From an uncultured Gammaproteobacteria bacterium (GTDB lineage: Bacteria; Patescibacteriota; Patescibacteriia; UBA1558; 2-01-FULL-52-15): a DNA stretch of 64,000 bases. Position 1 is the stretch's first letter, and each line of letters starts with the position of its first letter. A program made the position numbers and the translations under genes. The notes below the pieces were generated by a model, which was not told the origin of the DNA, ran no database searches, and worked only from the letters and a program-made list of their open reading frames with translations. The stretch lies in assembly GCA_964517065.1 (NCBI GenBank), contig CAZFBK010000001.1, positions 41,734 through 105,733 of the forward strand. Direction: 5' to 3'. Positions 16,374 through 64,000 of the stretch are shown here, in pieces.

Positions 16374-16956
16374 CCAACCAATGGTCGCCCGATTTTACTA
16401 ATGAAACTATAATATCTTGATAGTACTCGTTGATTTTTAAATCTGCTTTGCGTTCACTGCGCTGCGTCTTGACTGTCAGACGTGCTTCCGAAGCTGTTTG
16501 TGACACCAGCTTAATGCTAATGACGTGAGTTTCGATACCGGTATAAGCCTGAGCTGTATCTTGGCGCTTAGAAAAATCAAAACGACCTTGAAATGCTGGT
16601 GTGACCATAGACCAGACATCGCGGATATTTTGCTGGTTACTTTGGTTGGAGAAGCTGCCATAGCGTTCGACGAAGGTCCGCGTCACCACCGACAGCTCAG
16701 CACCAGCCGGTGCAGTGATCGGTAGCACTTGATTGACGTTTGTATTAGCAGCATTATCTGGTGTCACTGATTGAGGTTGTAATACTACCGGCGCTAATGT
16801 TCGTTGAGACAAAAACCACCAAAACCAAATCCCCAGACCAATGAGAACGACAACGACACCAATACTCAGCCACACTTTCGGTCGTGAAAAAATATTAGCC
16901 AGCGGCATTGATTTGGGCGTTAGTTTTCTCAGCGAAGTCGCGTTTGGCCTGTTCAA
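16351..16956 (-). CDS. Hypothetical membrane-anchored protein (N-terminal TM)
   Basis: 201-aa ORF. TM segment VVVLIGLGIWFWWFL. Overlaps the upstream gene, so the true start may be the internal Met near 16908. Confidence 0.45.
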   Translation of the reverse strand: MNRPNATSLRKLTPKSMPLANIFSRPKVWLSIGVVVVLIGLGIWFWWFLSQRTLAPVVLQPQSVTPDNAANTNVNQVLPITAPAGAELSVVTRTFVERYGSFSNQSNQQNIRDVWSMVTPAFQGRFDFSKRQDTAQAYTGIETHVISIKLVSQTASEARLTVKTQRSERKADLKINEYYQDIIVSLVKSGDHWLVDRAEWQ

Positions 16957-36100: not shown

Positions 36101-39100
36101 GTACAACCGACGGCAGCTGCCGAGCAGGTTCGGCTTTCTTTATCCAGACCACTATACACTACTCCGCTACTACGGCGTAATGGATGACAGTTGCTATCAG
36201 CGAAAATAACTTTATCCTGCAAACGGAATTTGGAAACACCATCAGTGTCGAAGAATTCACGACAGTTTGGATCGGTACTGACATCGCCAGCCTGACAAGT
36301 CGCCTGTGTCGCTGCTGTGTCCTGACAGGTGGTGCCGCCGGGTGCCACGTTGGTACACGGACCGCCGTCAAGATTGCTCTTCAGTACCTGCCAGGTGCGG
36401 ACTTGGAAACCACTGGTATCACTACCTTCGAGTGTATAATAAGTAATACCAAAATTAGCAGCTACACACTGACGCAAGAAGCTATAGTAATGTTTACCCT
36501 CGCCACCAGCAGCTACTTCGTCCAAATTAGTGAAAGCACTACAACCAATATCAGTGGCGTTACATTGTTTGGCGCTACTAGCAATAAAGTTTACATTAGT
36601 CGAAGCTGCCGTTGGCTGCTCCATGGTTTCAAAAGCAGTTGGTAACTGTATATAGGTCTGATAGCCGACACATTCGGCGGGACAACGATCAGCATTCGTC
36701 ACGACACCCGGCACAGTAGGGCCGCCATTTGTTGGGCTGTACAGATTACAGCCAACTTCTTCAGCTTTGCAGCTGAAACGAGTACCATTGAGATACACTT
36801 TGCCTGCGCTACCATAATCATTGTAATTCGATGGGCTTGATCCCGGCTCAACTTTGACACCATCGATGTAGAGAGCTCCACAGCCAGCCAGTGATCCGAG
36901 GAAGACGGTCAACTGTTGATCAGGATTATCGAGATCAAAAGTATGCGTCAACTGAAAGCGTTGCCAATCGCCGGTATAATTCACCTGAGCACTGACTGCT
37001 GAGGTACTCTGAGAACCAAGTGCTGCATTCGCAGTACAGGCTGTCGTAACCTTACCATACCAAGAGAGCGTATAAGTGGCGCCAACCAGACGACCAGCGA
37101 CTGCCGTAGCAGATAGCTGTCCATCACCAACAAGCTTAATCGCCGAAGATCCAATATAGGAGTTATCCCCTGCAACGGTATAGGCATTAAAGTTTGTACC
37201 ATTAGCCGTCCAACCGCTGAAGCTGTCAGGCAACGTATCATTGATATAGTCACCGTTGGTTTTGTCGGTATCAATATTCAGCTGATAAGTATCAAAATTA
37301 CCGTTGGCCAAGAGATTGATACCGCCTGTCTGCGGATTGATAAACTCCTGACAGCCGGCATCCTGCTGGGAACAACTGGTTACTTTGTTATTGAGATAAA
37401 TACGGTCATTAGGATTCCACTGGTAATTTGGGTTAGCAGCTGTACCGGTATTTTCCTGATTGAGACTGTACCATGAGCAACCTGCCTGTCCGGCGTCGCA
37501 AGATTCCAAAGTATTCTGCAGATAGCTGTATTTGGCGCCATTATCACGACGAGTGAAAACCTGACAGGATGAATACTGCTCCTGACAGGACTCACCGCTG
37601 AAGCGCCAGATATTACGCTCTTGGGTACAATAGCCATATCCCCCAACGCAATTACCTTTGCTATCTTGTGCCAGACACGAAGGACGATCGACACAGACTT
37701 GCTGACGTTGATTACTAGTGACATCTTCCAATGTCGGACCGTATACCAGAGCTTTGCATTGGGTGGATGGCGCTGTCAGTACCCAATTTGGATCAATCAA
37801 ATGATAGAAAATATTAGCAACTGGGTCGAGGATACATTTCGGTCCATTATCGAAACAGTTCACGACCTCACCGAGTGTCACCGGCCGAGAGACAGGACTG
37901 AGGGCAGCAGCAATCTCCCAACCGAGTGGTAAGATACGATAACTACGCAGACGGGCAATATTTCCATAACAATAGCCATTTTGGAAACAGCTCTTATCTC
38001 CATTCTGTGAAGCGTTGAGATAGGATATCAATGGACGATCGGCTTGCAGATGTCCCTGAGCCAGAGCCTGAGCAACTGTTTCTTTATTATTAATGGCCGC
38101 CAAAAAGGTATTATCAATTGTACAATTATCCGGCTGAGCCAGTTTGCGATCTGGCGGACAGGCGGTCAAATTTTGCAAATAATCGAATTCGTCAATTTGC
38201 TCCACGTTGACTGTTTTCAAATCAGCGAAAAGCTCAGAGGCGGAGCCGAAGCGACGTAAATCAACTTTATTACGCAACTGGTTGATCAAAGAATCGCGTA
38301 GATTGGTCGTTCCGCCACCGTAGAGGTTTGATAATGACCAACTACCACTAATATATTTATTTAATAACTTAGCCGTTAATGATCTCGAAAATAACTTGGC
38401 GGCATTGATAAAGACGTCTTCTGTTTTGATCAATGAAGCTTCTAATAAAGCATCTCGATAGGCGTTCTCATCGATACCCATGACCTTCGCGCAGTGGACC
38501 AAAACATCATCAGAGATCTTAGCTCCTTTATCTTTGTATCCTTTGCAGGTCTGCTCGCTAATCTTGGCTACATCCGCTGCTAATTGAGCTCGTCGGTCAG
38601 CCTCACCGGTCAACTGCAAAAAAATCCCCAGATCATTTTGGTTCGGATCCACCAGCATACCGAGCAGACCTGTTCGCTGATTGGTCGACAAACCAACCAT
38701 AGCCTGTGCTAGCCATTGTCCTGAATCAAGTGACTGACCAAATTTTTTCCAATTTTCTTTAATCTGATTCAGTTCACATTTTGGCGGTTTCGGTGCCTGA
38801 CCGCCAATGTCAGAGATCACTCCTAAGGTGATATTCACCTGAGTATCAAGTGACGGAGCGCAGAGGTTCAAACCTGATCCTTTGAAAAAATCTTCTGACA
38901 AATTACCAATGAAATCACCGTAAGCAGCATCCCGTGAATCGTTCAGAACGCGCGCAAATTCTTTGGTTCTGACCAAAGGCTTCAGACCCACCCCTCCCTG
39001 AGCAATGAAGGTGGCAGTGTTATAAGCTAGATTATTTAGATACGTTTGCAAGGTAGTCTGAAACAGACTCTGGCCAATGATTTTATAATTACGCTCAAAA

Positions 39101-39318
39101 ATTGCAGAAATTTTATCAAACAGAACTTGCATCCGGTCTTGAGTCGGTATACCGCCAGGAGCCGAAGCGCCCAATGCTCCAAGAGCTCCGGATAGATTCG
39201 TGCCAGAATCTAAGGGAGGTGGAAGTCCCACCTGAGCTAAGGCCGGCGAGTAACTTAAGCCAACTAGAAAAAAACTGAGAATGAATACTAGGCTAGTAAA
39301 CTTAGAAAATAATTTCAC
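30118..39318 (-). CDS. Giant (3066 aa) secreted cysteine-rich repeat protein. Probable surface adhesin or host-interaction protein.
   Basis: Uninterrupted 9.2-kb ORF. Signal peptide MKLFSKFTSLVFILSFFLVGLSYSPALAQV. Hundreds of Cys in recurring C-x(4-8)-G-C-x-(E/W)-(F/Y) modules (for example CDAGQAGCSWY, CSAAAVGCTEF, QQDAGCQEF, CRQEAVGCQAV). No catalytic motif recognised. Confidence 0.75.
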   Translation of the reverse strand: MKLFSKFTSLVFILSFFLVGLSYSPALAQVGLPPPLDSGTNLSGALGALGASAPGGIPTQDRMQVLFDKISAIFERNYKIIGQSLFQTTLQTYLNNLAYNTATFIAQGGVGLKPLVRTKEFARVLNDSRDAAYGDFIGNLSEDFFKGSGLNLCAPSLDTQVNITLGVISDIGGQAPKPPKCELNQIKENWKKFGQSLDSGQWLAQAMVGLSTNQRTGLLGMLVDPNQNDLGIFLQLTGEADRRAQLAADVAKISEQTCKGYKDKGAKISDDVLVHCAKVMGIDENAYRDALLEASLIKTEDVFINAAKLFSRSLTAKLLNKYISGSWSLSNLYGGGTTNLRDSLINQLRNKVDLRRFGSASELFADLKTVNVEQIDEFDYLQNLTACPPDRKLAQPDNCTIDNTFLAAINNKETVAQALAQGHLQADRPLISYLNASQNGDKSCFQNGYCYGNIARLRSYRILPLGWEIAAALSPVSRPVTLGEVVNCFDNGPKCILDPVANIFYHLIDPNWVLTAPSTQCKALVYGPTLEDVTSNQRQQVCVDRPSCLAQDSKGNCVGGYGYCTQERNIWRFSGESCQEQYSSCQVFTRRDNGAKYSYLQNTLESCDAGQAGCSWYSLNQENTGTAANPNYQWNPNDRIYLNNKVTSCSQQDAGCQEFINPQTGGINLLANGNFDTYQLNIDTDKTNGDYINDTLPDSFSGWTANGTNFNAYTVAGDNSYIGSSAIKLVGDGQLSATAVAGRLVGATYTLSWYGKVTTACTANAALGSQSTSAVSAQVNYTGDWQRFQLTHTFDLDNPDQQLTVFLGSLAGCGALYIDGVKVEPGSSPSNYNDYGSAGKVYLNGTRFSCKAEEVGCNLYSPTNGGPTVPGVVTNADRCPAECVGYQTYIQLPTAFETMEQPTAASTNVNFIASSAKQCNATDIGCSAFTNLDEVAAGGEGKHYYSFLRQCVAANFGITYYTLEGSDTSGFQVRTWQVLKSNLDGGPCTNVAPGGTTCQDTAATQATCQAGDVSTDPNCREFFDTDGVSKFRLQDKVIFADSNCHPLRRSSGVVYSGLDKESRTCSAAAVGCTEFRGNQGNNLRQVSNDTFESGSYQPWQAGTVTPIYSAESTNSGGHSMSWTSGVVSRSEGTSIVPGREYYLSFWLKAETAGTEFKAFLGKFDGSQTKCNGGVCEFTAANVSPIQPTTGWQPYQLGPLQVDEVMASDAVLLQLEASPKVFVDNIILKESVSNLTVVANSWSTPASCDQPFVGANLGCQEYKGPNNSTVTLRTFSQICRQEAVGCQAVVNTQNSNSPYQQMYHAGDKSQITVPADALEYVVIDQKKSCSASYQGCTLMGRPTFNRDLPETDPDYVRSYTPVFQINDPDRYDQQLCQDSGLFCQEYSDASGQSAFYRDPYNRTCTYKEGVSIQGVSFNGWFQTESLLPGQTPIGCYSQGIPPFTEDQFVIHPTADPLYGGWVGTCPASQNQCSEFVDTQATDGENLFANATFANGVAGWASWSAYGNTLNSAATFNANGGTATITTNPTGTGLFFQRLFTQDPQTNLKMQNTETYNLSADVRIDNFFADDKSGGAVQAVMRCVWDSPYDQDYCGIVGTGFDVTVDYTKPCTTSDQCGGGNNFCYKAAQGYCQSNTDKTNVACTNNSRCSSLGAGYTCETNFGYQSTDSQNNRRDHLTEYYVGADIKKRDGIQSLNVVANIGSDSQGDELIYCEPTFRVSSGYYQQSNTGCPAGANNENNPNCFNTACTNSGQSCNPVLTACSGGTCGGASKVEFSNVSLRKVKSYFYLNNDNIDDSTCNGQVSKNNGCILFDDVNDSNKTYNSYLTYLASDKAGGKPVSPVVCDQSSSDQQLHDCTNDANRVIKVNRDRECSQWLACKSSSQIFDPQTKGYRQICSEVGLCDKYSTSGDLLNCANWLPESQTKLDYASYVTRDTRYQATDYSGMSMYNRYPVDNMHLLDISINAKKDGPDPLKPDYRLVKFVDCVSSTGACTDPNGSGSQYGDTGYAKCGPGDIGRVFNHNDKAECAVGIDGSRFDPISPFVLKVSTRAYAEQDAPFPQSLSSGAQSSTRKVTFGFQQANICDSSVASCETGYYKMQYGGTSAVRYYSINGPLGGTEVPTCICDGGSLDGSACKTVENVNDKTNTTSIDTQCPGGNPIQLRRSDVYLNWPGYCLEPDTSTHINASPTQYACLSWLPVDIAPGGTDYFNQYREAGYSYKAPAYYCAEVGVKEIRRKFTIDCLDSASDIEKPGTFIKVDANGQALDSNSTEDPTVHGAGLKDQRRVIDGKYFAYELGQNCGGGIFSGIDHPVAVLPISQINDGSGWRTVDNCVGNIVDVKDGFDGNRYRLTDQCEADYDRETLRIQYTDANNHSQLLGRTFFGDSEPYAACSYLAQAVTPRGDNAAITNLFWSDFKLANGDTYKISSDPRTSGAPNYTLNQDAAPFGSAVPSSGLEPSDFPRLDLKSIGTVPRAGSPYVCANDDGICGLLGQKGSRVYVDGWMTPGKFGKVDQPYQTYADGIINLRSIFQRVFGVYRYTLGNTCVYSVCDSKLYGGENCSNDSACVISKEENKCTAVSNCINSPWGNRSCGITCASGFIANSNGQCEATFSNELSCLSACTPYMTESNRTVVAQKDCSVVENNRYTCAYVPPSSTTVCQASTAHMECADNGRGKDLCHDTVLGGNGWTVIECSTVSDCTSKIPTLNKATFCAPANAHLCVGPAFDENAANRWFKNPQDCYDDTTNALGQKLDGYKTDNSGNQICQAPDAKCKLASQVTTYADKRCSISKTTCSIDADCLNGQTCEGQPYCTFQPDTYKKLCNPDTDPNCDYGSANAVASKALPLDATMPSSSAQGTQSHDSKYYADTNFGPIIAEAICASDSGQCTLGKVGNFTVNGQTNGTITEDKKPNLLANISFFAMAYKDHMPIRSIKIDWGDGSVQSNIGLYKNNWPQCDPALALTTSTISNFQPLAFNYTWGNGSTLDFAGTPQACEEGIRNYFHVYHYDSNYTAGCEAGYACFKPRVSIQDNWGWCANNLWSAVGSGCSGSADVVYGGGGSDDVIKIKAPTN

Positions 39319-53535: not shown

Positions 53536-54048
53536 TTTGTAAAATAATCAATATTCAATGATCAAATTTCAAACAATAATCAATCATTAATATCAAATAT
53601 TCAAACATCTACCGCAGTATGCGTTTCGATATTTGAACTTTTATATTTGATATTGTTTAGTATTTAGTGCTTGGTTATTCGTTATTGATTTTTTATTTTC
53701 CGAAGGAAAATAAAAAATCCCCAACAAACTGCACCCAAGAAAACTTGTCATAGTAGTTTTCCAGCCTGAGCCGGAAAAAAACTAGAGACAAGTCCCCATG
53801 CTTGTCGTGGATGCAGATTGTTAGGGACGTCCCATGTGGGATTTACTATACTAGCATAGGCATAGGTTCCTGTCAATAGCCGGCAAAGACCCGATTTATC
53901 CCCATTTTATGCACCGTTCCTTGACTAATCAGGCACTATTGTATATGATTGTCCCATCATTTAGGCGGTTGAAATATCACCTACAGTGTTCGGGCAATCC
54001 AGAGGATCGCCCCTACCAACTACTAACTACCAACTACTAACTACCCCT

Positions 54049-54349: not shown

Positions 54350-55234
54350 ATGGCCAACAGACATTTAGCTCGTACCTTAACCTTACAAAGTTTATTCGAA
54401 TGGGATTTCTACCAGGGCAAGGTTGAAATTGCCGAAGTTTTGGAAAACAATCGCAAAGAGTTCGCGCCAGAATTCGAAGATCAAGGCTTCAGTCTCCGCC
54501 TACTGGAAGAAGTCATTGATAACCACCTTATTATAGACAAACTGATTGCCAAATTCGCGCCCGAGTGGCCACTCGATCAGATCACCCTCGTCGATCGCAA
54601 TGTGTTGCGCATCGGCATCTATGAACTAAAATTTGATAATACTATCCCGCCGAAAGTAGCCATCAATGAAGCTATCGAATTAGCTAAAACCTATGGTGGC
54701 GGTTCTTCCGGTAAATTTGTTAATGGCGTGCTGGGCAGTATTTATAAAGAAATGGTTAAGCGCGGAGAGAAACAAAGCTTAGTCAGCCAAGGCATCAAAG
54801 AAGAATCCAGCGGTGGCATCGTCTATCGCCGTGAAGGCGCGGAATACAAATTTGTCCTGATCATGGACGCCTATGGCAAATGGACTTTCCCCAAAGGCCA
54901 CGTTGATCAAGGTGAGCGACCGGCTCAGGCTGCAGCGCGCGAGATCCGCGAAGAATTAGGCTTGGTTAATTTAGATGAGATTGATTATCTCGGTGATATC
55001 CAATTAAAAGTACACAAACCAGAGCAGGCTGCCTTCCGCAAATTAGTTCACATCTATTTATTTGAAACTACGGATACCGAGCTGCATATTCCCCAAGTTG
55101 CCGAGCTTAAAGATGGCAAATGGTTCTCAGCCGAAGAAGCTGTCGAGGCTATCGGCTATGAAGAAACTCGAGCTATATTTCAACAAGTCGTACAACGATT
55201 ACACAATCCCAATGAAGGACAGCAATCAGCTTGA
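54350..55234 (+). CDS. nusB: NusB-like antitermination domain fused to a C-terminal NUDIX hydrolase domain
   Basis: MANRHLARTLTLQSLFEWDF NusB N-terminus. Nudix box GHVDQGERPAQAAAREIREELGL in the C-terminal half. Confidence 0.7.
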   Translation: MANRHLARTLTLQSLFEWDFYQGKVEIAEVLENNRKEFAPEFEDQGFSLRLLEEVIDNHLIIDKLIAKFAPEWPLDQITLVDRNVLRIGIYELKFDNTIPPKVAINEAIELAKTYGGGSSGKFVNGVLGSIYKEMVKRGEKQSLVSQGIKEESSGGIVYRREGAEYKFVLIMDAYGKWTFPKGHVDQGERPAQAAAREIREELGLVNLDEIDYLGDIQLKVHKPEQAAFRKLVHIYLFETTDTELHIPQVAELKDGKWFSAEEAVEAIGYEETRAIFQQVVQRLHNPNEGQQSA

Positions 55235-55901
55235 GACCAGCCTCGGGCTTAAATTCAAAAATAAAGATCTCCTCCGTAGCGCACTGACGCATCGGTCGTA
55301 TTTGAACGAGCACAAAAATCTCGGCATTGATCATAATGAACGCCTAGAATTCCTCGGTGATGCTGTCTTGGAATTAATCGTGACGGAATTTCTCTTTCTC
55401 AACTATCCCAACCCAGAAGGCGAGCTGACCAACTGGCGATCAAGCCTCGTCAACGCCAATACGCTCGGTGATCTGGCTGAAGAGCTCGGTATCTATCCCT
55501 ATCTCTATCTCAGCCGTGGCGAAGCTAAAGATGATAACGCCAAAGCGCGCAAATATATCCTTGCTAATGCTATGGAAGCTCTCATCGGAGCTATCTATCT
55601 GGATCAGGGATTAGCCAAGACGGAGAAATTTATCACCGATACGGTACTGGTTAAACTCGATCATATCTTGAAAAAGCATTTATATATTGATCCCAAGAGT
55701 AAATTCCAAGAAAAATCACAAGAACTCTACGGCACGACTCCCCACTACAAAGTCATGACCGAGACAGGACCGGATCATCACAAACGGTTTGTCGTTGGTC
55801 TCTATATTGATAAAGAATTAATTGCTGAAGGCGAAGGTTTCTCCAAGCAGGAAGCGCAGATTACGGCTGCGGCTGAGGGACTGAAGCAGAAACGGTGGTA
55901 A
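55212..55901 (+). CDS. rnc: Ribonuclease III
   Basis: ERLEFLGDAVLELIVTEFLF RNase III signature and C-terminal dsRBD. Start at the internal Met overlaps the nusB-nudix end by 23 bp. Confidence 0.85.
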   Translation: MKDSNQLETSLGLKFKNKDLLRSALTHRSYLNEHKNLGIDHNERLEFLGDAVLELIVTEFLFLNYPNPEGELTNWRSSLVNANTLGDLAEELGIYPYLYLSRGEAKDDNAKARKYILANAMEALIGAIYLDQGLAKTEKFITDTVLVKLDHILKKHLYIDPKSKFQEKSQELYGTTPHYKVMTETGPDHHKRFVVGLYIDKELIAEGEGFSKQEAQITAAAEGLKQKRW

Positions 55902-56008
55902 GTTAGTTACCACGGAGTCAGTAGATATCCACGGTCGTAAGGGTGGGTTTGAAACCCACCCCGACGGGACAGCGACGCTGTCCCTCAGCCGCTCAATAAA
56001 AATAAACT

Positions 56009-57529
56009 ATGAAAAAATTAAATAGCTCCCAATCAAGTCACCAGCTGGTGCCTTTTATTATTTTAATCCTCATCGCTGGACTGCTTAGCGCTGACATCTA
56101 TTTCTACTTCAAAGCTCATAAAGATAACACTGCTACTACCCTACCAACTGTCGCGACAAGCGATAACTGGAAAACCTACACCGACAGTGGCTTAGGTTTT
56201 CAGATTGATTATCCCGCTGACCAACCGATTGAATCCTATTTTAAAGACAATATCTTCTACACAGTTATAGGCACGATGCCCTATGAACCAGCTCCGGGAC
56301 TATTTACTATTGGGATGAAAAAAAATACCAGTGCAGAAGAGTACCTAGTACAAACGCAGAAAGATACCTCAGGTTGTAGCAAGTCAGAAGTTGTAACACT
56401 TAATAATCGTGATGCGATTTTTTATACCTGCGTCTCAGAATTCGCTGGCGACACTGTCGACAATTTCGTCATTGCCAGAAACAATAACATCTACCACCTT
56501 AGCTTCATGCTAGTACCACAAGGAACAACGGCCGAAAGCGTGAAGTTTGTCATTAGTCCGAATGATCAAAAAATGTTGGATAGCTTCAGTATAACTGAGC
56601 GCCTGACAGACTGGCAGTTGTATACCAACAGTGACTATGGTTTCAGTTTGCAATATCCTCAAGATTGGAAGCAAGAGAACTTCAAAGGAGGTATATCTGG
56701 CTGCTGCTTTACCGGCTCTGGTGTGGTTGCTATTGACTCGATAGAACAGCGACCTGGTGTTCATGAGGGCGAAGGTGAAGCATTGAGAATTTATTTAAAA
56801 GATATAACCCCAACTCAATACGCCACCGAATATAATACATTCAATAGAGTAGGTCTCAAAGATGCCGATTTTGTTGAGAAAAAACAGACAGAAACCTTAG
56901 CAGGTGTTGAAGTTACTCATTTAAGACTTGGCACTCCTATGGGCAGTTATTTCGAAGTTATCTTCTTTAAACAAGGCGTGCTGAAGCCTTTCTATATTGA
57001 ATACGATGATAATGATCCACTTCATCAGCAAATTCTTTCCACCTTCCGCCTCACTGACGATATGAGCGGATGGCAAACATATACGAATGAAAAATATGGT
57101 TTTAATTTTCAATATCCGTCTAATTGGAAGCAAATTAATTCGCCGACTTTTCTTCTTAATCTCTCGGAAAATGATCCATACAGTTACGATTTCAGCGGAG
57201 TGTTCATTAAAACAACAAATCCAACTACTATTGAAGATGCCTTGGCCAAGGCTATCATAGAATATAAGACCAAACTTGATGCTGATCCCGATTATCCTTC
57301 AAGCTATCCTAAATATACTGAACCAAAGGTCGTTGATTTTCATGGCCAGACAGCCATAAAAAGGTCTTATAAGACTTATGAAATAACTCCTCCAGGCACA
57401 GAATATATTTTACCCGAAAAGGGATTGATAATTACCATATCTGATTTATATGGAAATGGAAAAATATCCGTTGAGACAATGTCTACATTAAAGAATCAAA
57501 TCCTCTCCACCTTCAAATTTTTAAAATAA
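56009..57529 (+). CDS. Secreted/TM-anchored multi-module protein, array member 1 (three W.TYTN..YGF.FQYP..W modules, each ending ILSTFRLTDD or ILSTFKFLK)
   Basis: N-terminal TM. Repeated module boundaries at WKTYTDSGLGFQIDYP, WQLYTNSDYGFSLQYPQDW and WQTYTNEKYGFNFQYPSNW. Confidence 0.6.
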   Translation: MKKLNSSQSSHQLVPFIILILIAGLLSADIYFYFKAHKDNTATTLPTVATSDNWKTYTDSGLGFQIDYPADQPIESYFKDNIFYTVIGTMPYEPAPGLFTIGMKKNTSAEEYLVQTQKDTSGCSKSEVVTLNNRDAIFYTCVSEFAGDTVDNFVIARNNNIYHLSFMLVPQGTTAESVKFVISPNDQKMLDSFSITERLTDWQLYTNSDYGFSLQYPQDWKQENFKGGISGCCFTGSGVVAIDSIEQRPGVHEGEGEALRIYLKDITPTQYATEYNTFNRVGLKDADFVEKKQTETLAGVEVTHLRLGTPMGSYFEVIFFKQGVLKPFYIEYDDNDPLHQQILSTFRLTDDMSGWQTYTNEKYGFNFQYPSNWKQINSPTFLLNLSENDPYSYDFSGVFIKTTNPTTIEDALAKAIIEYKTKLDADPDYPSSYPKYTEPKVVDFHGQTAIKRSYKTYEITPPGTEYILPEKGLIITISDLYGNGKISVETMSTLKNQILSTFKFLK

Positions 57530-57533
57530 ACCT

Positions 57534-58622
57534 ATGCTCAACAAAAAATTCCAACATGGCAACACCTTCCTACCCTATCTCATCCTCGTCGTCATAGCCG
57601 GACTGGTCACGACCAATCTGTGGCTGTACTTCTGGAATCAGAAAGAGATAACTCCGTCACAACCCCAGTCGGTTGTTACTACAACCGATCCGCTGGCTGG
57701 TTGGCAGACGTATACGAACGGCCAATATGGGTTCAACATTAAATACCCGTCCAACTGGGTGGCCAAAGAAATTCCAAATCAAGAATACGGCGGAGTTGTC
57801 AATTTTTTCCAATCAGGTTCCAAAACATATCCTGAGCAGGGAGGTAGTCAGCCAATTGGGGAAAATTTAGTCACCTTATCTCTATTAAAAAACCCAAATG
57901 ATCTAACCCTACAACAGATATTTAACAACAATTACAATAAGTGTCTGCAGGAACCTAATAACGATTTTGGATGTCCGAGTCCGCAAAACACAGAGTCTTG
58001 GCAAACCATAACTGTTGATGGAGCAAAAGCCTGGCGAACCGGTGATACCGGCATACCTGAGGGACCGGGGGCGGATACGTTGTATATCAAACAAGACGGT
58101 TATTATATCGAGATGACATTAATGTTGTTCGAACCAGTCCGAAAAAATATTGATACAGCCATATTAGATCGAATGATTTCCACCTTCCGCTTCACTGATG
58201 ATATGAGCGATTGGAAGATTTATAAAAATGAGAAGCTCCACTACCAAATACAACTCCCAACTGGCTGGTGGATCAACGAACAAAAAGATTTTACCCAAAT
58301 CCTACCACCATCAATCGAAAAAGAAGTTTTACCTTCTGGAGCTGGCTTTGGAGGTGCGCAAAGTGATCAGCCAATTATAACTATCTCTCGTGTTGTGGAT
58401 CTGGAGCTCGGTGAGACGATGCACAATATTCAAGATGAAAGAAAAATTACGATCGATTCTATTGAGTCAAGCCAAAGGCAAGAGAATGGAAGTTTTGGTA
58501 ATAGTATAAATACCTACATCCCTCTAGGTAAAAACTATATAAAATTTAGCTGGGATTTAATTTCAAAACCTAGTGACCCTGCTCTAGAACAAATCCTCTC
58601 CACCTTCAAATTTATAAAATAA
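57534..58622 (+). CDS. Array member 2 (two modules)
   Basis: WQTYTNGQYGFNIKYPSNW and WKIYKNEKLHYQIQLPTGWW. Ends ILSTFKFIK. First 60 codons about 90% nucleotide-identical to member 3. Confidence 0.6.
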   Translation: MLNKKFQHGNTFLPYLILVVIAGLVTTNLWLYFWNQKEITPSQPQSVVTTTDPLAGWQTYTNGQYGFNIKYPSNWVAKEIPNQEYGGVVNFFQSGSKTYPEQGGSQPIGENLVTLSLLKNPNDLTLQQIFNNNYNKCLQEPNNDFGCPSPQNTESWQTITVDGAKAWRTGDTGIPEGPGADTLYIKQDGYYIEMTLMLFEPVRKNIDTAILDRMISTFRFTDDMSDWKIYKNEKLHYQIQLPTGWWINEQKDFTQILPPSIEKEVLPSGAGFGGAQSDQPIITISRVVDLELGETMHNIQDERKITIDSIESSQRQENGSFGNSINTYIPLGKNYIKFSWDLISKPSDPALEQILSTFKFIK

Positions 58623-58626
58623 ATCT

Positions 58627-60234
58627 ATGCTCAACAAAAAATTCCAACATGGCAACACCTTCCTCCCCTACCTGACTCTGGTCGTCATCGCCGGACTGGT
58701 CACGACCAATCTGTGGTTGTACTTTTGGGGTCAGAAGGAAATAACTCCTTCACAACCCCAGTCGGTTGTTACGACGATTGATCCACAGGCTGATTGGCAG
58801 ACATATACAAATACTGACTATGGCTTTAGTTTCCAATATCCAGCAGATTGGACTGAAAAAAAAGACAACCTACCAGATTCAATAAAAAAAGATGAGGGAG
58901 GTGTGCCGACTCAAAGCCTTGCATTGTCTACACTTAACGGCGAGACTCAATTTTCTCTTCTAATAGATCCACTCGGTTTTGGTCCTTTCTTTCCAGATAT
59001 GTTTCTAACTGTGGCCAAAAAAAATGGCGGCTTAGCAATAACCCAAAGGCAAAACTCGGAGTCGAATAAAGATAATAAACCGAATGAATATAGTTTAATT
59101 ATTTCTAGCATCGATAACGAGTCGCCTCGGTTTTGGATGTATGCCAGTTCACCAGCAGTCGAAAAAGATAAACTTATAGCTCAGCTAGATAAGCTAATTG
59201 CCACCTTCCGCTTCACTGATGATATGAGTGATTGGAAAACGTATAACACAACTCAATATAGTTTACAATTTAAATTTCCCAGTGACTTAGTTTATCTTGG
59301 TCCTGAAGGAGGCGATTTTATCGGACCATTATCATCACCGAAAGCGATCAAATATGCGCCTGATCTTGTCGTAGGCACACCAGAAAACGAATTAATCTTT
59401 ACGCTTGATATCATCCCGACTAGCGACAATGATGGTAATTTTTATGTGCTTAATCACATCCAACAAGTCTTCTCTAGAGATACATCAAAATATAGCAAAT
59501 CAACTGTCTCAATTGATAATATTGCATACGATAAATATAGCCGCCTACAGAATCGACAACCTGATAATCATACACAGATAAAGGATGTTTACATTACCTC
59601 CCAGAATGGTTTTACTTATATAATAACGTTGTACGGCCTGCAGATTGGAGAAAAAATCCTCTCCACCTTCCGCTTCACTGATGAACCCGTCATAAAAATT
59701 CCTGATGATTGGAAAAACTATACTGACAGCCAAGTAGGCTTTTCATTTGCTTATCCAAATCCCTGGAAACTCACAACCGAAAATGGAGACCCGTCCGTTA
59801 TTGCCAGTCTCTTTTATCAACCAATCGAAGAGGCCTATAACTTAGATGGCGGTATTAGCGTCTATGTCCGTATTCATGAAAGTAATGGCTTATCTTTGGC
59901 AGACTGGTTTCATAAAAATGCTGAATATTCTAAAGAGAAAATTCAGCAACGTGTTGACTATATGAAACTAGAGGGCAGCGGTTCACTAATAGCTTCTGAT
60001 ATCATCACTAATTTCCAGAATATTACTATTGACTCAACGCCGGCAATCGCTCAGTACACCAAAGAGCTAAAACCAACCTATATTGAAGGCGGAGCTTCCA
60101 CGCGTAAGGAATATTATTTCAAGAAAGGTGATAAAATAATTTCTATTATCGGGCAAACCTCCACCGGGTCTCAAGCCCAAGGGATGCTAAACCTTTTTGA
60201 TCAATTCGTCGCCACCTTCAAATTCAATAAATAA
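58627..60234 (+). CDS. Array member 3 (three modules)
   Basis: WQTYTNTDYGFSFQYPADW, WKTYNTTQYSLQFKFPSD and WKNYTDSQVGFSFAYPNPW. Ends VATFKFNK. Confidence 0.6.
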   Translation: MLNKKFQHGNTFLPYLTLVVIAGLVTTNLWLYFWGQKEITPSQPQSVVTTIDPQADWQTYTNTDYGFSFQYPADWTEKKDNLPDSIKKDEGGVPTQSLALSTLNGETQFSLLIDPLGFGPFFPDMFLTVAKKNGGLAITQRQNSESNKDNKPNEYSLIISSIDNESPRFWMYASSPAVEKDKLIAQLDKLIATFRFTDDMSDWKTYNTTQYSLQFKFPSDLVYLGPEGGDFIGPLSSPKAIKYAPDLVVGTPENELIFTLDIIPTSDNDGNFYVLNHIQQVFSRDTSKYSKSTVSIDNIAYDKYSRLQNRQPDNHTQIKDVYITSQNGFTYIITLYGLQIGEKILSTFRFTDEPVIKIPDDWKNYTDSQVGFSFAYPNPWKLTTENGDPSVIASLFYQPIEEAYNLDGGISVYVRIHESNGLSLADWFHKNAEYSKEKIQQRVDYMKLEGSGSLIASDIITNFQNITIDSTPAIAQYTKELKPTYIEGGASTRKEYYFKKGDKIISIIGQTSTGSQAQGMLNLFDQFVATFKFNK

Positions 60235-60244
60235 TTCAAAAGAC

Positions 60245-61369
60245 ATGACAACAAAAACTATAGCCACCATCGTGATCTGTGGCATCCTGATCGTAGTCGG
60301 TCTCGCTTGGAGTCACGTGCCACCGTTTAAGGGCTTGATACCAACTACTGCCCCAACTCCGCAGCCAACAAATACCGTGAATGAGGTTATTCCAAACAAT
60401 AAACCGGCCACTGGTAAAATTATCCCCGAAACCTACACCAGCACCTCTCTTGGTTTCTCCATCCAGCATCCTGTTGGTTGGAAGGTTGACGATACCTCTA
60501 CACCAAATAAAGTTTGGTTCAACCCAGTAGAAACAGAAGCTGTTGATAGTATAGAAGTCGAGAATGGCACACTGACCAGTTGGCTCAAAGCGTTCGAAAA
60601 CGATATCTCAACTCAAACTGATCTAACGGTAGATGGCTACCCAGCTAAGCAGATTGATCTGAACAGTTTTAATCTGCAAATGACTGCTGTCGAGAAAGAC
60701 GGAAAGCTCTACGTCATCACATCCAATCGGGATATTAAAAAATTGGGACTTGCCTCAACCTTTAGGTTCACATATGCTACCCCACCCTACACGTACTCCG
60801 TCGTACAATTCGTTAATTCTAAACCTTCCCCAGGCTCAGCAGATACCAAGCTTGTCAGATCTGACAACACAGTGATTATTCCTAGCTTACGGCAAGCTTC
60901 AGGTGTATATTTAGATGCTTTCAGTCTACCAACTCAAGGCGACCAGCTCTACTTTAGGTCTGCCCTTCCAGAATCAGACAACGCTGCTGGACAAATATAC
61001 TCCTACAGTTTAACCGAGAAAAAATTTACAAAGCTCAAAAACCTGAACTCACTCTTTAGTGGCTGGGGCGGTGTAAAAATCAACCCTAATGGCTATATGA
61101 TAGCTTTTGTCCGTGATACCTACTTCGAAAACCCAGTTGCTGGTTTGGATCAGAAACTATATATATTTGACCTCGGCCAAGATACATTGATAAAGACAAT
61201 CACTCTATCTGGAACTGAAACTTTTAATTCTGGTTACGGTGCTCTATCGAGCGACTATTATCTCAAATGGGTTGATCAAAACACCCTAGAATATAAGGTC
61301 TATAAAAACTCTACCCCTGAGAAAGAAAAAGCAATAATACGAACAGAGCAATACACATTATTCGATTAA
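60245..61369 (+). CDS. Array member 4, a divergent single-module relative (YTSTSLGFSIQHPVGWKV)
   Basis: N-terminal TM. Related module opening. Start placed at the internal Met; the ORF extends to 60197. Confidence 0.5.
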   Translation: MTTKTIATIVICGILIVVGLAWSHVPPFKGLIPTTAPTPQPTNTVNEVIPNNKPATGKIIPETYTSTSLGFSIQHPVGWKVDDTSTPNKVWFNPVETEAVDSIEVENGTLTSWLKAFENDISTQTDLTVDGYPAKQIDLNSFNLQMTAVEKDGKLYVITSNRDIKKLGLASTFRFTYATPPYTYSVVQFVNSKPSPGSADTKLVRSDNTVIIPSLRQASGVYLDAFSLPTQGDQLYFRSALPESDNAAGQIYSYSLTEKKFTKLKNLNSLFSGWGGVKINPNGYMIAFVRDTYFENPVAGLDQKLYIFDLGQDTLIKTITLSGTETFNSGYGALSSDYYLKWVDQNTLEYKVYKNSTPEKEKAIIRTEQYTLFD

Positions 61370-61381
61370 AGAAATTCTAAA

Positions 61382-61414
61382 AGGCGCCGTCGTGCTGACG
61401 AGCGCCTTTTTTTG
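61382..61414 (+). terminator. Rho-independent terminator closing the paralog array
   Basis: AGGCGCCGTCGTGCTGACGAGCGCCT hairpin plus TTTTTTTG. Confidence 0.75.
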
Positions 61415-61427
61415 TTCTTTCCCTCCT

Positions 61428-61955
61428 CTAACATTGAAGTGGTCGCGTGAGCTGGCTGATGCGAACTGTGTCAGCCGTGGTCAGAGGCGTGCATCCCTGA
61501 AGCCAATCCAGATCAAGACACAGTCCAGTCAGATCCACGCGCGAAACTGCCGGAGTTGAGACCAACATCTCAAAGGCGGATATTCTGCCTTGAAACTCGG
61601 CCTTGGAATACAGTGAATCCGCCCTGATCTCGAGTTCCATAACTCGTTTCAGGAGAATACGTGCAAAACCGACAGACACATGCGAAGCATCAGCGACCAG
61701 CAGCCCATGAGCCAGCAAACCCTGCTGGACAATAACCCCCAGTGAGCTGTATTCGTGGTCATCTACCTGACAAACATGACATCGCGGGAAACAAAATCCC
61801 CACCGGTGACGCTTCGGCTGTGACGCCAATTCCTTCCTTCGCGCTTTGGCTCGCTCCGCCATTGCCTGCAACACTCGCGCAGCTCGCTGTGTGACGGCTT
61901 TACGTCTTCTCTCCTGCAACCTATGCGGCAAACCCACCTCCTCGTTAGAATACAA
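61428..61955 (-). CDS. Hypothetical Cys-containing protein on a GC-rich islet
   Basis: 175-aa ORF. GC clearly above background. Alternative overlapping ORFs exist on other frames, so the call is weak. Confidence 0.25.
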   Translation of the reverse strand: MYSNEEVGLPHRLQERRRKAVTQRAARVLQAMAERAKARRKELASQPKRHRWGFCFPRCHVCQVDDHEYSSLGVIVQQGLLAHGLLVADASHVSVGFARILLKRVMELEIRADSLYSKAEFQGRISAFEMLVSTPAVSRVDLTGLCLDLDWLQGCTPLTTADTVRISQLTRPLQC

Positions 61956-62065
61956 ATAACATATAACGATTCATTTAAGCACTATGAACATGCTGTGTCA
62001 ATTAATTATCTCTACTTTGACAAACTTACTACCTTTGCTCGGGTAACAATGGCACCTAGAAACGG

Positions 62066-62416
62066 GTGGCCAGAAGGGAGGTTGCCATGGACCATGGTAA
62101 TCTTGCAGTGGTAGATCAGGGAAAGTTCCCTGAACGCATCTGTGCTCATGGTAATTGCTACCAGCACGATCCGGTGATGAAGCGAATCGGTGAAAAACAA
62201 CAGCTTCCCAACCCAACGTTCTTTGGACTGCTCACCGTCTTTCTGTTCTGGCGACACTGCGGTCGTCCGTTGAGACGATACAAAATCGTACAACGTTACC
62301 AATGCCAGAAATGCGGTCGGATTGAGGATCAAGTCGACAATGATCGTTTGGGTGTCTGTCAGTGCTGTGGATACCATACGACCGTTCCTCGATACAACCC
62401 AGGACCGCGCGGATAA
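62066..62416 (+). CDS. Hypothetical small protein with a TM segment and C-terminal CxxC...CxxC zinc-ribbon
   Basis: CQKCGRIEDQVDNDRLGVCQCCGYH. Divergent from the 175-aa ORF across an AT-rich spacer. Followed by a terminator. Confidence 0.3.
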   Translation: MARREVAMDHGNLAVVDQGKFPERICAHGNCYQHDPVMKRIGEKQQLPNPTFFGLLTVFLFWRHCGRPLRRYKIVQRYQCQKCGRIEDQVDNDRLGVCQCCGYHTTVPRYNPGPRG

Positions 62417-62436
62417 TCAATTCAACAACCCTACTC

Positions 62437-62475
62437 AGAGCCGCGAGAGATTACTCTCGCGGCTCATTCTTTTTT
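62437..62475 (+). terminator. Rho-independent terminator
   Basis: GAGCCGCGAGAGATTACTCTCGCGGCTC hairpin plus TTCTTTTTT. Confidence 0.7.
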
Positions 62476-62545
62476 AAATCTTTAAAAAACGGCTCTCCCT
62501 CATAAAAGAGTGGAGCAAAACAACATTTTACTAATGAATATATTA

Positions 62546-63664
62546 CTAAAGTTTCAGAACAATTAATCCGTTCTGATCATTAGCTAAATACGTATATCCA
62601 TTATGAACTGCTACGCCCCACGTATAGCCTGGGAAACCAGCTCCCTGCTTGAGATCCTGAATCTTATCTCCGCTAATATCATATTTACTGACTCCACCGC
62701 TGGAACGCATAAAGGCAGTTTCCCCAACCAAAACTCCAGCATCCATTCCGATAAACGGTCTGTCTTCCGTATATTCGGTAGCCAAAACTTTCGGTACTTC
62801 CTGTTTGGTGACATCCAAAATCGTTAACCCTAGACCTTCCTTATCTGCAACATACAATTTATTGCCACGAGCCACCACACCTTCAGGATACCCTTTGGTG
62901 TCATACGCGCCTTTATAGTTGGGGTTTCTGGGATTAGAAACATCCAAGATGAGCACTCCGGGCATTCCACTAGCTATATAGAGATATTCTCCCACCATAG
63001 CCATCTCCCGCATATTCGTTGAAGGATCAGGATGTGTGTATTGAGCAATCTCCGTGGGGGATGCAGGATTAGAAATATCCAGGACATGAAGTATCGGTGT
63101 GTCTAGTAGAAAAAGTGTATTTCCATGAACGTAACTTGGACCAACCGTCAACAAGCCAAAATTTTTATCACCTTGAAATCTTCCTATTTCTTTTGGTGTA
63201 GTTCGGTCATTAATATCATAGATGCGGAAATCCGGCTTGTACGGGAGACCACCAATGCCAACATATGCCCGATTGCCGAACAACAGGATAGAATCAACCG
63301 TTGAATCAACCTTAACATAGCCAACTGGCGTCGGCAGTTTTGGATCACTAATATCTAAAATACGGAATCCACTATGATCATCAACAATATAAGCGTAGTC
63401 ATCTATGATAGATACCAGGCTGACCCCTGGCTTGGCATAGCGACCCACCACAGGCGTTTTGGGATCATAGGTAAGACTGGTAATAGTGGCAGGATCATAA
63501 GGTGTCGGTAATCCAAACGATTGAGTTGTTTTTTCAGGCTGCGTTATTAGTGGACCGTTATCAGGAAATGGACTGCCTTTCATGCTCGAAAAATACTGAT
63601 AACCAAAAAACCCTCCAATGCCCAGAATCAAGAGCGCTACTATAGATAAAATTATATTTTTCAT
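62546..63664 (-). CDS. Secreted LVIVD-repeat beta-propeller protein
   Basis: Signal peptide. Repeats YAYIVDDHSGFRILDISDPKLPTP, YLYIASGMPGVLILDVSNPRNP, KLYVADKEGLGLTILDVTKQ, YTYLANDQNGLIVLKL. Confidence 0.7.
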   Translation of the reverse strand: MKNIILSIVALLILGIGGFFGYQYFSSMKGSPFPDNGPLITQPEKTTQSFGLPTPYDPATITSLTYDPKTPVVGRYAKPGVSLVSIIDDYAYIVDDHSGFRILDISDPKLPTPVGYVKVDSTVDSILLFGNRAYVGIGGLPYKPDFRIYDINDRTTPKEIGRFQGDKNFGLLTVGPSYVHGNTLFLLDTPILHVLDISNPASPTEIAQYTHPDPSTNMREMAMVGEYLYIASGMPGVLILDVSNPRNPNYKGAYDTKGYPEGVVARGNKLYVADKEGLGLTILDVTKQEVPKVLATEYTEDRPFIGMDAGVLVGETAFMRSSGGVSKYDISGDKIQDLKQGAGFPGYTWGVAVHNGYTYLANDQNGLIVLKL

Positions 63665-63781
63665 CCTATTATTATTTAGTTAGATACCATTACTATAGCA
63701 CAAACCAAATAATTACTATAAAAAAAAAATACCGACTCCCCCTCGTGAGAGAGAGCCGGCCGAGTACAAGCGACGCGTGAT

Positions 63782-64000
63782 CTAGCAGTCAATCGGTGCG
63801 TCAGCCAGAGTTTCCCTGACCAGAATGTAGTCTTCGAGACTCGTGCTGAGCTGCCCGCCGTAACCGGGCCACAGCGCCTTCTGCCAGAAGGTCAGGTGAC
63901 CTTTGCCCCAGCGGAACTCCGTGGCAGCCCACTTCTGAATTGCGACTCTGACACGACGATCTTCAATCATGTTGAACAGCTTACGAGCGGCTTCAGCCTT
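63782..64000 (-). CDS. Partial hypothetical protein (GC-rich, runs off the window end)
   Basis: ORF open to the window edge. No motif. Elevated GC. Confidence 0.2.
   Translation of the reverse strand, partial: KAEAARKLFNMIEDRRVRVAIQKWAATEFRWGKGHLTFWQKALWPGYGGQLSTSLEDYILVRETLADAPIDC

Follow-up and report, generated by a model that had tools for sequence, protein, structure and literature searches.

How can neighboring genes keep nearly identical nucleotides at the borders of their protein modules when the interiors of those modules are scarcely alike? This question is raised by an array of four plus-strand genes at 56009-61369 of the 64,000-nucleotide (nt) stretch of patescibacterial DNA analyzed here (the window), located downstream of the RNase III gene, rnc. 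Our comparisons indicated that the array is probably a product of evolutionary module shuffling and lateral module exchange, through homologous recombination at junction repeats, in a lineage-specific expansion of a membrane-anchored PsbP_2 family.

The four open reading frames (ORFs) are co-oriented and separated by gaps of 4, 4, and 10 nt. Gene 1 (56009-57529; 506 amino acids [aa]), as delimited from the ORF list and a match to PsbP_2, comprises an anchor and modules 1a (56168-56611), 1b (56612-57070), and 1c (57071-57526). Gene 2 (57534-58622; 362 aa) carries an anchor with modules 2a (57702-58211) and 2b (58212-58619), and gene 3 (58627-60234; 535 aa) an anchor with modules 3a (58795-59232), 3b (59233-59709), and 3c (59710-60231). 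Gene 4 (60245-61369; 374 aa), for which the ATG at 60245 was taken as the start of an ORF that itself opens at a TTG at 60197, combines an anchor, a diverged module 4a (about 60428-60775), and an unrelated all-beta C-terminal domain of 197 aa (60776-61366). The anchor in every gene is an N-terminal basic stretch followed by a hydrophobic helix (residues 12-34 in gene 2 and 4-21 in gene 4 in the AlphaFold2 models). The modules are 116-174 aa long and open with W-x-T-Y-T-N-x-x-Y-G-F-x-F-x-Y-P-x-x-W; internal modules end in (Q)ILSTFRFTDDMSD and terminal ones in (Q)ILSTFKF-x-K-stop, and the module interiors share a mutual identity of just 15-36%. The first-pass annotation of this DNA had described such proteins, with an N-terminal transmembrane segment followed by one to three modules bearing these start and end motifs and strongly diverged interiors, and this architecture was confirmed, with three, two, three, and one modules in genes 1 to 4. 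Its term "secreted" was not, the N-terminal hydrophobic helices marking the proteins as membrane-anchored. Its count of four paralogues holds for genes 1-3 and partly for gene 4, which scores 17.4 bits against PsbP_2, uses other junction codons (TCA ACC TTT AGG), and ends in the unrelated C-terminal domain.

Nucleotide sequence of the module junctions

The junctions between modules are direct repeats. A 29-mer, TCCACCTTCCGCTTCACTGATGATATGAG, occurs exactly at 58179, with one mismatch at 59200, and with two at 57038, against a chance expectation of 0; at 59662 just its first 23 nt match, and the linker deviates beyond them. In full, the internal junctions read QILSTFRLTDDMSG at 57029-57070 (1b/1c; conserved core, two mismatches to the 29-mer), RMISTFRFTDDMSD at 58170-58211 (2a/2b; the reference copy of the 29-mer and the right border of a laterally shared module 2a), KLIATFRFTDDMSD at 59191-59232 (3a/3b; one mismatch), and KILSTFRFTDEPVIKIPDD at 59653-59709 (3b/3c; core kept, linker deviating, and the right border of a tract 99% identical to a relative, L005). 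The terminal junction of gene 3 (60202-60234; QFVATFKFNK-stop) was picked up in the repeat search in a separate family. The core of the junction repeat is ATCCTCTCCACCTTC; the repeat extends to about 30-45 nt in internal junctions (...CGCTTCACTGATGATATGAGYGATTGG) and to about 70 nt in terminal ones that run on into the next anchor. At 57505 and 58598, the stop/start junctions agree at 65 of 67 positions and lie within a longer direct repeat of 252 nt, of which one copy (57497-57748) takes in the closing codons of gene 1 (QILSTFKFLK-stop), the gap of 4 nt, the gene 2 anchor, and the first codons of 2a, and the other (58590-58841) the end of gene 2, the gene 3 anchor, and the start of 3a. The two copies were 85% identical in a repeat search, with a synonymous divergence (dS) of 0.51 between their anchor segments. 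Over their first 180 nt, genes 2 and 3 are 87.8% identical, where about 90% had been estimated at first sight, and in 30-nt bins the background level is reached about 40 nt into the first module. The near-identity first reported for the internal and the stop/start junctions is therefore borne out by these counts.

The peptide I-L-S-T-F-R-F-T that closes a module is written in the near-fixed codons ATC CTC TCC ACC TTC CGC TTC ACT. In a set of 23 non-redundant module ends drawn from six related genomes, isoleucine is ATC in 13/16, leucine CTC in 14/17, serine TCC in 17/18, the first threonine ACC in 18/20, phenylalanine TTC in 21/23, arginine CGC in 11/15, and the last threonine ACT in 12/16. 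Several of these codons are uncommon in the genome (TCC, 0.10; CTC, 0.16; CGC, 0.22; ACC, 0.32), and codon bias in the window is weak (TCC, 0.10-0.14 of serine; CTC, 0.16-0.19 of leucine; CGC, about 0.2 of arginine; ACC, 0.32 of threonine). The module-start motif, which is equally conserved as a peptide, uses its threonine, glycine, proline, phenylalanine, and serine codons freely. Because rare codons are nearly fixed at the junction and vary freely at the module start, selection on the peptide alone is insufficient to account for the junction sequence. Moreover, since the module bodies are saturated, neutral synonymous sites at the junction should have been randomized as well; equal divergence of synonymous sites, the outcome that would have spoken for ordinary purifying selection, was not what we found. 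The conservation spans about 24-32 nt and then fades, as the linker serine illustrates (AGT, 7; AGC, 6).

Variation at the rnc locus among related genomes

The syntenic locus was found in relatives through the adjacent rnc gene, and eight of them were tabulated besides the window, with modules of at least about 35% aa identity assigned to homology groups named by Greek letters. The order rpmF, nusB-NUDIX, rnc, array, ... smc is conserved. Written gene by gene, the window reads alpha-1b-1c, 2a-beta, gamma-delta-epsilon, and zeta-C4. The locus of L085 (flank 87% identical in nucleotides) contains alpha-1b-1c and B2a-theta, followed by the minus-strand ORF that in the window follows gene 4; that of L005 (83%) contains alpha'-A1b-beta, A2a-eta-A2c, gamma-delta-epsilon, and zeta-C4; and that of L086/L006 (82%) alpha'-theta and 2a-C2b. 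The remaining five loci hold a single gene each: 2a-kappa-Ccys in L088 (73%), and, with flanks of about 73%, eta-kappa-Ccys in L009, K10a-zeta-Ccys in L010, K8a-gamma in L008, and K7a-K7b-gamma' in L007. The gene number is thus one, two, or four, and one module type may stand first, second, or last, in different genes. Some members are plainly shared, such as gene 1 with the 505-aa first gene of L085 (91% nucleotide identity), gene 3 with its 535-aa orthologue in L005, and module 4a with module 2 of the L010 gene (65%), and the C-terminal domain of gene 4 was found again beside other modules in P0249. Positions of the window and L005 that were expected to be orthologous are nevertheless occupied by unrelated modules (22-28% identity), although the RNase III proteins of the two are 97% identical. 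As far as these assemblies represent the genomes, the locus downstream of rnc is conserved in position and hypervariable in content, and it displays among related genomes the rearrangement polymorphism for which the first-pass annotation had advised looking.

The borders and ages of the shared segments point to exchange between lineages. Of 25 ends of homology blocks, 18 lay no more than 40 nt from the border of a module or gene, against 22% expected. As delimited from 90-nt bins and the list of mismatches, a tract of about 99% identity to L005 (58590-59690) begins at the terminal junction of gene 2 and stops at the 3b/3c junction; its left flank is unrelated, and its right flank is 76-97% identical per 90-nt bin and about 88% overall. 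Between the window and L005, dS was 0.00 for 3a and 0.04 for 3b, versus 1.27 and 1.26 for nusB and rnc. The shared module 2a (57694-58214) is 94.6% identical in nucleotides to its counterpart in L086 and 93.3% to that in L088, where it lies in different genes; its dS was 0.19 against L086 (rnc, 1.4) and 0.14 against L088 (flanking nusB and rnc, 1.8 and 2.5), with a range of 0.14-0.24 across comparisons. The modules of gene 1 differ from those of L085 by a dS of 0.11-0.32 (flanks, 0.86-1.05), and values of 0.15 for kappa (L088 versus L009) and 0.28 for theta (L085 versus L086) were obtained between other genomes. Because the dS of modules (0.00-0.32) is well below that of their flanks (0.86-2.5), modules appear to have moved between lineages long after these lineages split. 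Orthologous modules have a dN/dS (ratio of nonsynonymous to synonymous divergence) of about 0.1-0.3, which indicates purifying selection, and we infer that variation is generated through module replacement instead of point mutation. The 252-nt repeat (dS 0.51) postdates the separation of the window from L005, and both anchor paralogues are already present in L005; this pattern points to conversion or unequal crossing-over of a unit spanning two genes. The "recent duplication" of the first-pass annotation can be kept in part: the anchor repeat is younger than the modules, but a dS of about 0.5 is not very recent, and the event is more aptly called a conversion, or a partial duplication, of a gene-end and anchor segment.

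Compared across these genomes, the modules behave as exchangeable cassettes whose borders bear a direct-repeat nucleotide sequence. The simplest process to fit the data would be RecA-type homologous recombination, in which crossovers take place at the junction repeats and in the anchor segment. Within the array, unequal crossing-over or gene conversion would alter the number of genes and modules and homogenize the gene-end and anchor unit, and recombination would also take place between paralogues; between related species, DNA uptake would allow single modules or module pairs to be swapped in frame. Any two junctions that recombine in register keep the reading frame. The minimal efficient processing segment for homologous recombination is usually about 20-30 bp, and the conserved core is about that length. 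Shuffling driven by recombination or gene conversion, as first proposed, is supported by the codon test, the mosaics, the breakpoints, and the dS values, and what was seen is shuffling between species-level lineages. The notion of a cassette-like variable system holds for this exchange of modules between lineages; its other part, programmed or within-population switching, is unsupported, since no recombinase, inverted repeats, or silent cassettes were found. Elsewhere in the window, a VirB4/TraG-type P-loop ATPase is encoded within a co-oriented gene run at 16895-18790 (minus strand); the run may serve type IV secretion or the transfer or uptake of DNA and would then be relevant to lateral exchange.

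Several further observations concern the locus and its surroundings. A cysteine-rich C-terminal domain of 131 aa (...CTAKPV...CSSSRL...CSEKVSD.SCKKW...DDCVFCG) is encoded in L009 (9050-9442), in L010 (11758-12150), and in the 458-aa gene of L088; the L009 and L010 copies are 93% identical, and the domain is joined to different PsbP-like modules in the three genomes, so that it, too, is judged from its partners to behave as a shuffled cassette. The G+C content of the array region (56000-60000) is 0.40, compared with 0.43-0.49 in the remaining window. Upstream, a NusB-NUDIX hydrolase fusion forms one 294-aa ORF (54350-55234) that is kept in all related loci (L001, L002, L085, L088). The intergenic segment between a cupredoxin gene and rpmF (53709-53963) is 94.5% identical to L001, with 76-83% in the flanking coding sequence; it folds somewhat better than shuffled sequences (z-score, -2.6). 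Neither a tRNA nor an above-threshold Rfam family was matched, and the segment may represent a small RNA or a regulatory leader not described before. Directly downstream of the array, a 175-aa minus-strand ORF (61372-61955) has no match in Pfam or PADLOC. Its 3' part (61372-61577) is 82% identical in nucleotides to the stretch with which the L085 contig ends, immediately behind the two-gene array there, and on the basis of this match the ORF is probably a real gene that marks where the variable region ends on the right; in L005 its place is taken by small genes unrelated to it. In L005, L086, and L088 the array is followed by small minus-strand genes and smc, and the synteny of the window (61354-64000) with them stops at the array, which places the array at a synteny breakpoint in this genome. 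Beyond it lie overlapping ORFs that defied annotation, followed by a strong terminator-like hairpin (62438-62465) and a gene for an LVIVD-repeat protein (62546-63664, minus strand).

Alternative accounts of the junction repeats

Could the array instead consist of ordinary tandem paralogues that diverged in place, with purifying selection on an essential C-terminal helix/strand peptide preserving the junctions? ILSTF(K/R)F is indeed the most conserved peptide of the whole family in the alignment consensus, and its serine is always TCN and never AGY, as descent under selection on serine would have it. This account is almost certainly wrong, being largely refuted on present data: third positions are near-fixed for rare codons and the module-start peptide is unbiased, the modules of L005 are unrelated to those of the window beside 97%-identical flanking proteins, the same modules stand in other positions and genes, and module dS lies far under flank dS. 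A programmed system that switches within a population, whether shufflon-like, by conversion of the pilE/pilS or vls type, or through a diversity-generating retroelement, would fit the short conserved repeats at in-frame borders, which recall shufflon sfx sites or cassette borders, and the hypervariability of the array among relatives. It is nonetheless very improbable. The junction repeats are all direct, and 55500-62600 lacks inverted repeats save for one 20-nt chance pair; together with the lack of a recombinase domain in neighboring ORFs, this led us to reject a shufflon of the Rci/sfx kind. All four genes are complete, with start, anchor, and stop, and lie 4-10 nt apart in an operon-like arrangement, leaving no silent cassettes and no truncated or promoterless donors for cassette-type antigenic variation. 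Integrase and reverse-transcriptase domains were likewise not found in the ORFs scanned around the array, whose repeats are junctions and anchors and not template/variable repeat pairs, as a diversity-generating retroelement would have. PADLOC gave no match, neither here nor to any known defense system, and single-gene loci of relatives, too, still bear the junction sequence.

Several observations weigh against module shuffling as set out above. The genomes are all metagenome assemblies, and assemblers may switch between co-occurring relatives at shared repeats; the junction copies share descent and are not phylogenetically independent, so that P values are only indicative, and the count of block ends is partly biased toward module termini, the termini being the conserved parts. 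A within-population variant of the window array was not found, the exact proteins occurring on one or two contigs only, and for genes 2 and 3 the contig index held no exact match. A weaker codon bias across the family in distant genomes, described below, is also not obviously explained by recombination alone. The reading of the mosaics as assembly chimeras between co-occurring relatives that share junction repeats draws on the shared exact runs of about 35-70 nt that lie where the tracts end and on one metagenome-assembled genome (L006/L086), where rnc and the array lie on separate contigs that overlap inside the end of rnc, beside the array. We regard this reading as unlikely: exact runs between copies in the window do not exceed about 40 nt, which is below read length; three assemblies, each produced in a different study, contain distinct versions of module 2a (dS 0.14-0.24) with their own flanks, on contigs as long as 158 kb; the 99% tract retains at least 11 differences; and the differences in gene number (one, two, four) lie between conserved flanks on single contigs.

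The junction core also recurs beyond the clade of the window. A metagenome contig search for ATCCTCTCCACCTTC followed by MRNTTY, in which matches were selected by the motif itself, returned at least 120 contigs against a rough chance estimate of about 15; among the matches listed, about 110 carried it in frame as (Q)ILSTF(K/R)F at the module or protein end of otherwise dissimilar proteins, and none of the 120 loci listed was related to the modules of the window. Additional ILSTF ends in those loci contained the exact 15-mer in 12 of 39 cases. Four distant genomes picked by protein similarity gave a sample that was not selected by the motif: in this small set of 12 ends, ATC was used in 9/12 (background, 0.27), CTC in 6/12 (0.11), TCC in 6/12 (0.19), and ACC in 7/11 (0.40), with the exact 15-mer in 1/12. 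Distant loci anchored by rnc held few family members, all without the ILSTF peptide. From this small sample, the same nucleotide consensus appears to be preferred across the family, far less strictly than in the clade of the window, and such a preference could reflect either broad exchange among members or selection on the sequence itself. A function of the junction nucleotides in mRNA or DNA, such as a translational pause, a protein- or RNA-binding site, or a recombination signal, with shuffling as a by-product, would accommodate the in-frame 15-mer in more than 100 unrelated metagenome contigs, the preference for ATC and CTC that persists in the distant genomes, and a core that is a pyrimidine tract of C-ending codons only. 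We consider it rather doubtful, because RNA folding of the junctions is inconsistent (z-scores of -2.6, -0.8, -0.4, 0.15, 0.18, 0.6, and 0.7 in seven windows) and because third positions vary in the distant genomes of that small sample. No Rfam family matched at the gathering threshold in 50-64 kb, and a common RNA element at the junctions was discarded as a candidate on account of this and of the lack of a common structure. The bottom strand of R-type junctions bears GAAGCGG and AGCGG, the former of which we take to be the Chi site of Staphylococcus aureus; as a Chi-like hotspot it was also set aside, with 11 occurrences in the window against 6.6 expected, three of them the junctions themselves, and no strand bias. 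More speculatively, and with a small though not negligible chance, the core of about 15 nt, a pyrimidine tract, might be a selected, phylum-wide DNA "splice site," preserved at synonymous positions in thousands of PsbP_2 modules that are otherwise unrelated, so that modules acquired from other patescibacterial cells could be fitted in frame; the family would then form a communal pool of surface modules traded horizontally, possibly with a dedicated recombination function that has yet to be recognized.

Protein family, probable role, and known parallels

The modules belong to PsbP_2 (PF18933), which genes 1, 2, and 3 match with 48.1 (E = 1.8e-12), 36.2, and 41.7 bits, above the Pfam gathering threshold of 27, and gene 4 with 17.4-17.6 bits, under it. 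Photosystem II PsbP proper (NCBIfam NF040946, an equivalog model) was rejected as an assignment, since it scored 18.5-28.1 bits against a cut-off of 60 and matched just the first 30 or so residues of a module. The structure prediction recommended in the first-pass annotation was carried out for gene 2 from 53 two-module homologues and gave a transmembrane helix and two alpha/beta domains with a mean predicted local distance difference test (pLDDT) score of 80.8. Foldseek matched this model to PDB entries 2lnj, 2xb3, 1v2b, 4rth, and 1eq6, among others, with a probability of 1.0 and target template modeling scores of 0.42-0.62 (0.5-0.62 for PsbP/CyanoP); the domains matched PsbP, CyanoP, and Mog1; Apa, MTC28, and LpqN of Mycobacterium tuberculosis; the type VI secretion immunity proteins Tsi3 and TplEi; and EagT6/SciW chaperones. 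The modules are accordingly modeled with a PsbP/Mog1-type alpha/beta fold and a central antiparallel sheet. In the same model, the module end forms the tail of a C-terminal helix and a short strand, and the module start the first beta-hairpin. The gene 4 model was of low confidence (pLDDT, 58) and too poor for a structure search.

A profile built from nine modules matched 14,929 representatives of clusters at 50% identity (1,696 at E ≤ 1e-10), and the matches with names come from Patescibacteria and are labeled "hypothetical" or "PsbP-related." Proteins of the family usually have two to six modules; among 246 retrieved proteins, 122 had two and 93 had three. In two distant Patescibacteria, tandem runs of three or four PsbP_2-type genes lie amid housekeeping genes (L212, 9046-13421; L214, 8558-12381), and, judging from these runs, tandem arrays seem to be characteristic of the family in general. 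Literature searches on PsbP-like proteins of Patescibacteria, also called the Candidate Phyla Radiation (CPR), or on PF18933 returned nothing relevant. The window also holds another paralogous family of probable surface proteins, three LVIVD-repeat (beta-propeller) proteins of 807, 822, and 372 aa (minus strand, 1709-6597 and 62546-63664); a giant protein of 3,004 aa is encoded by one ORF at 30118-39132 (minus strand).

Patescibacteria are abundant and mostly uncultured, have small genomes, and are in many cases attached to other cells; to our knowledge, their surface proteins are almost entirely uncharacterized. By analogy, the array proteins are probably cell-surface binding modules that serve attachment or the neutralization of external proteins, with surface exposure and binding suggested by the anchor, the fold relatives, and a pattern of variation in which the repertoire differs among close lineages. 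Extracytoplasmic proteins of this fold (CyanoP/PsbP, Apa, MTC28, LpqN, Tsi3, TplEi, and DcrB) resemble the modules in predicted structure, and many such relatives, which are secreted or reside in the envelope, work by binding other proteins or ligands. They differ in having an identity of just 7-16% to the modules and no tandem chains of modules on a single membrane anchor, and their functions are not transferable. If shuffling is indeed at work, the cassettes of one of the largest hypothetical-protein families of Patescibacteria (about 15,000 clusters at 50% identity) would be swapped in frame within and between species. The locus changes far faster than the surrounding housekeeping genes, and its nucleotide-conserved junction provides a simple searchable signature. 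Should the modules mediate attachment or protection, the array would be a candidate determinant of partner range and an example of natural intronless domain shuffling on a far larger scale than in the classical Gram-positive cases. If the family-wide synonymous bias is confirmed, it raises the question of whether selection can maintain recombination signals inside coding sequence.

The closest known parallel is the shuffling of surface-protein modules in Gram-positive bacteria (protein PAB of Finegoldia magna, protein G, and protein L; de Chateau and Bjorck 1994, 1996, as cited in PMC3962080 and PMC3467074), where recer sequences, 15-bp direct repeats, are found at module junctions according to PMC3467074, and where a module moved between species in the case of protein PAB. 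Both systems involve the intronless, in-frame swap of whole modules between surface-protein genes and species with short direct repeats at the junctions, and the marks of recer-type shuffling were found in the array: a junction repeat conserved past the need of the peptide, the same module in different proteins, positions, and species, and breakpoints at repeats. They differ in that the Gram-positive modules are three-helix or beta-grasp binding domains and those of Patescibacteria are PsbP/Mog1-like; the repeat sequence probably differs as well. In the array, furthermore, the end of one gene and the anchor of the next may form a single unit across the gene border, the number of genes varies, and the family has a very large membership. 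Domain movement (DoMo) and replacement of target recognition domains (TRDs), known from the specificity genes of Helicobacter pylori restriction-modification systems, involve a domain flanked by conserved sequences of 8-117 bp (Furuta and Kobayashi; PMC3467074). There, too, homologous recombination replaces a variable domain or shifts it into a different position or gene, with combinatorial specificity as the result, but the domains are cytoplasmic and recognize DNA, whereas the array modules are predicted to be extracytoplasmic, stand in tandem, and are exchanged between species-level lineages. The tandem lipoprotein cluster of S. aureus, in which the unit of variation is the 3' part of one gene with the 5' part of the next (Tsuru and Kobayashi 2008, as summarized in PMC3467074), offers a counterpart to the two-gene-spanning 252-nt repeat (57497-57748, 58590-58841); it concerns another protein family and was described from isolates within a species, not from metagenome-assembled genomes. 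Neisseria pilE/pilS, Borrelia vlsE, and Mycoplasma genitalium MgPar likewise replace surface segments from homologous donors within conserved bounds, but they do so at one expression site, from silent truncated donors, and with high-frequency switching within a clone, whereas the genes of the array are all complete and co-oriented and differences were seen between lineages only. What sets the array apart from these known cases is its fold, its phylum, probably its repeat sequence, the scale of its family, and the combination of gene-number change with module exchange.

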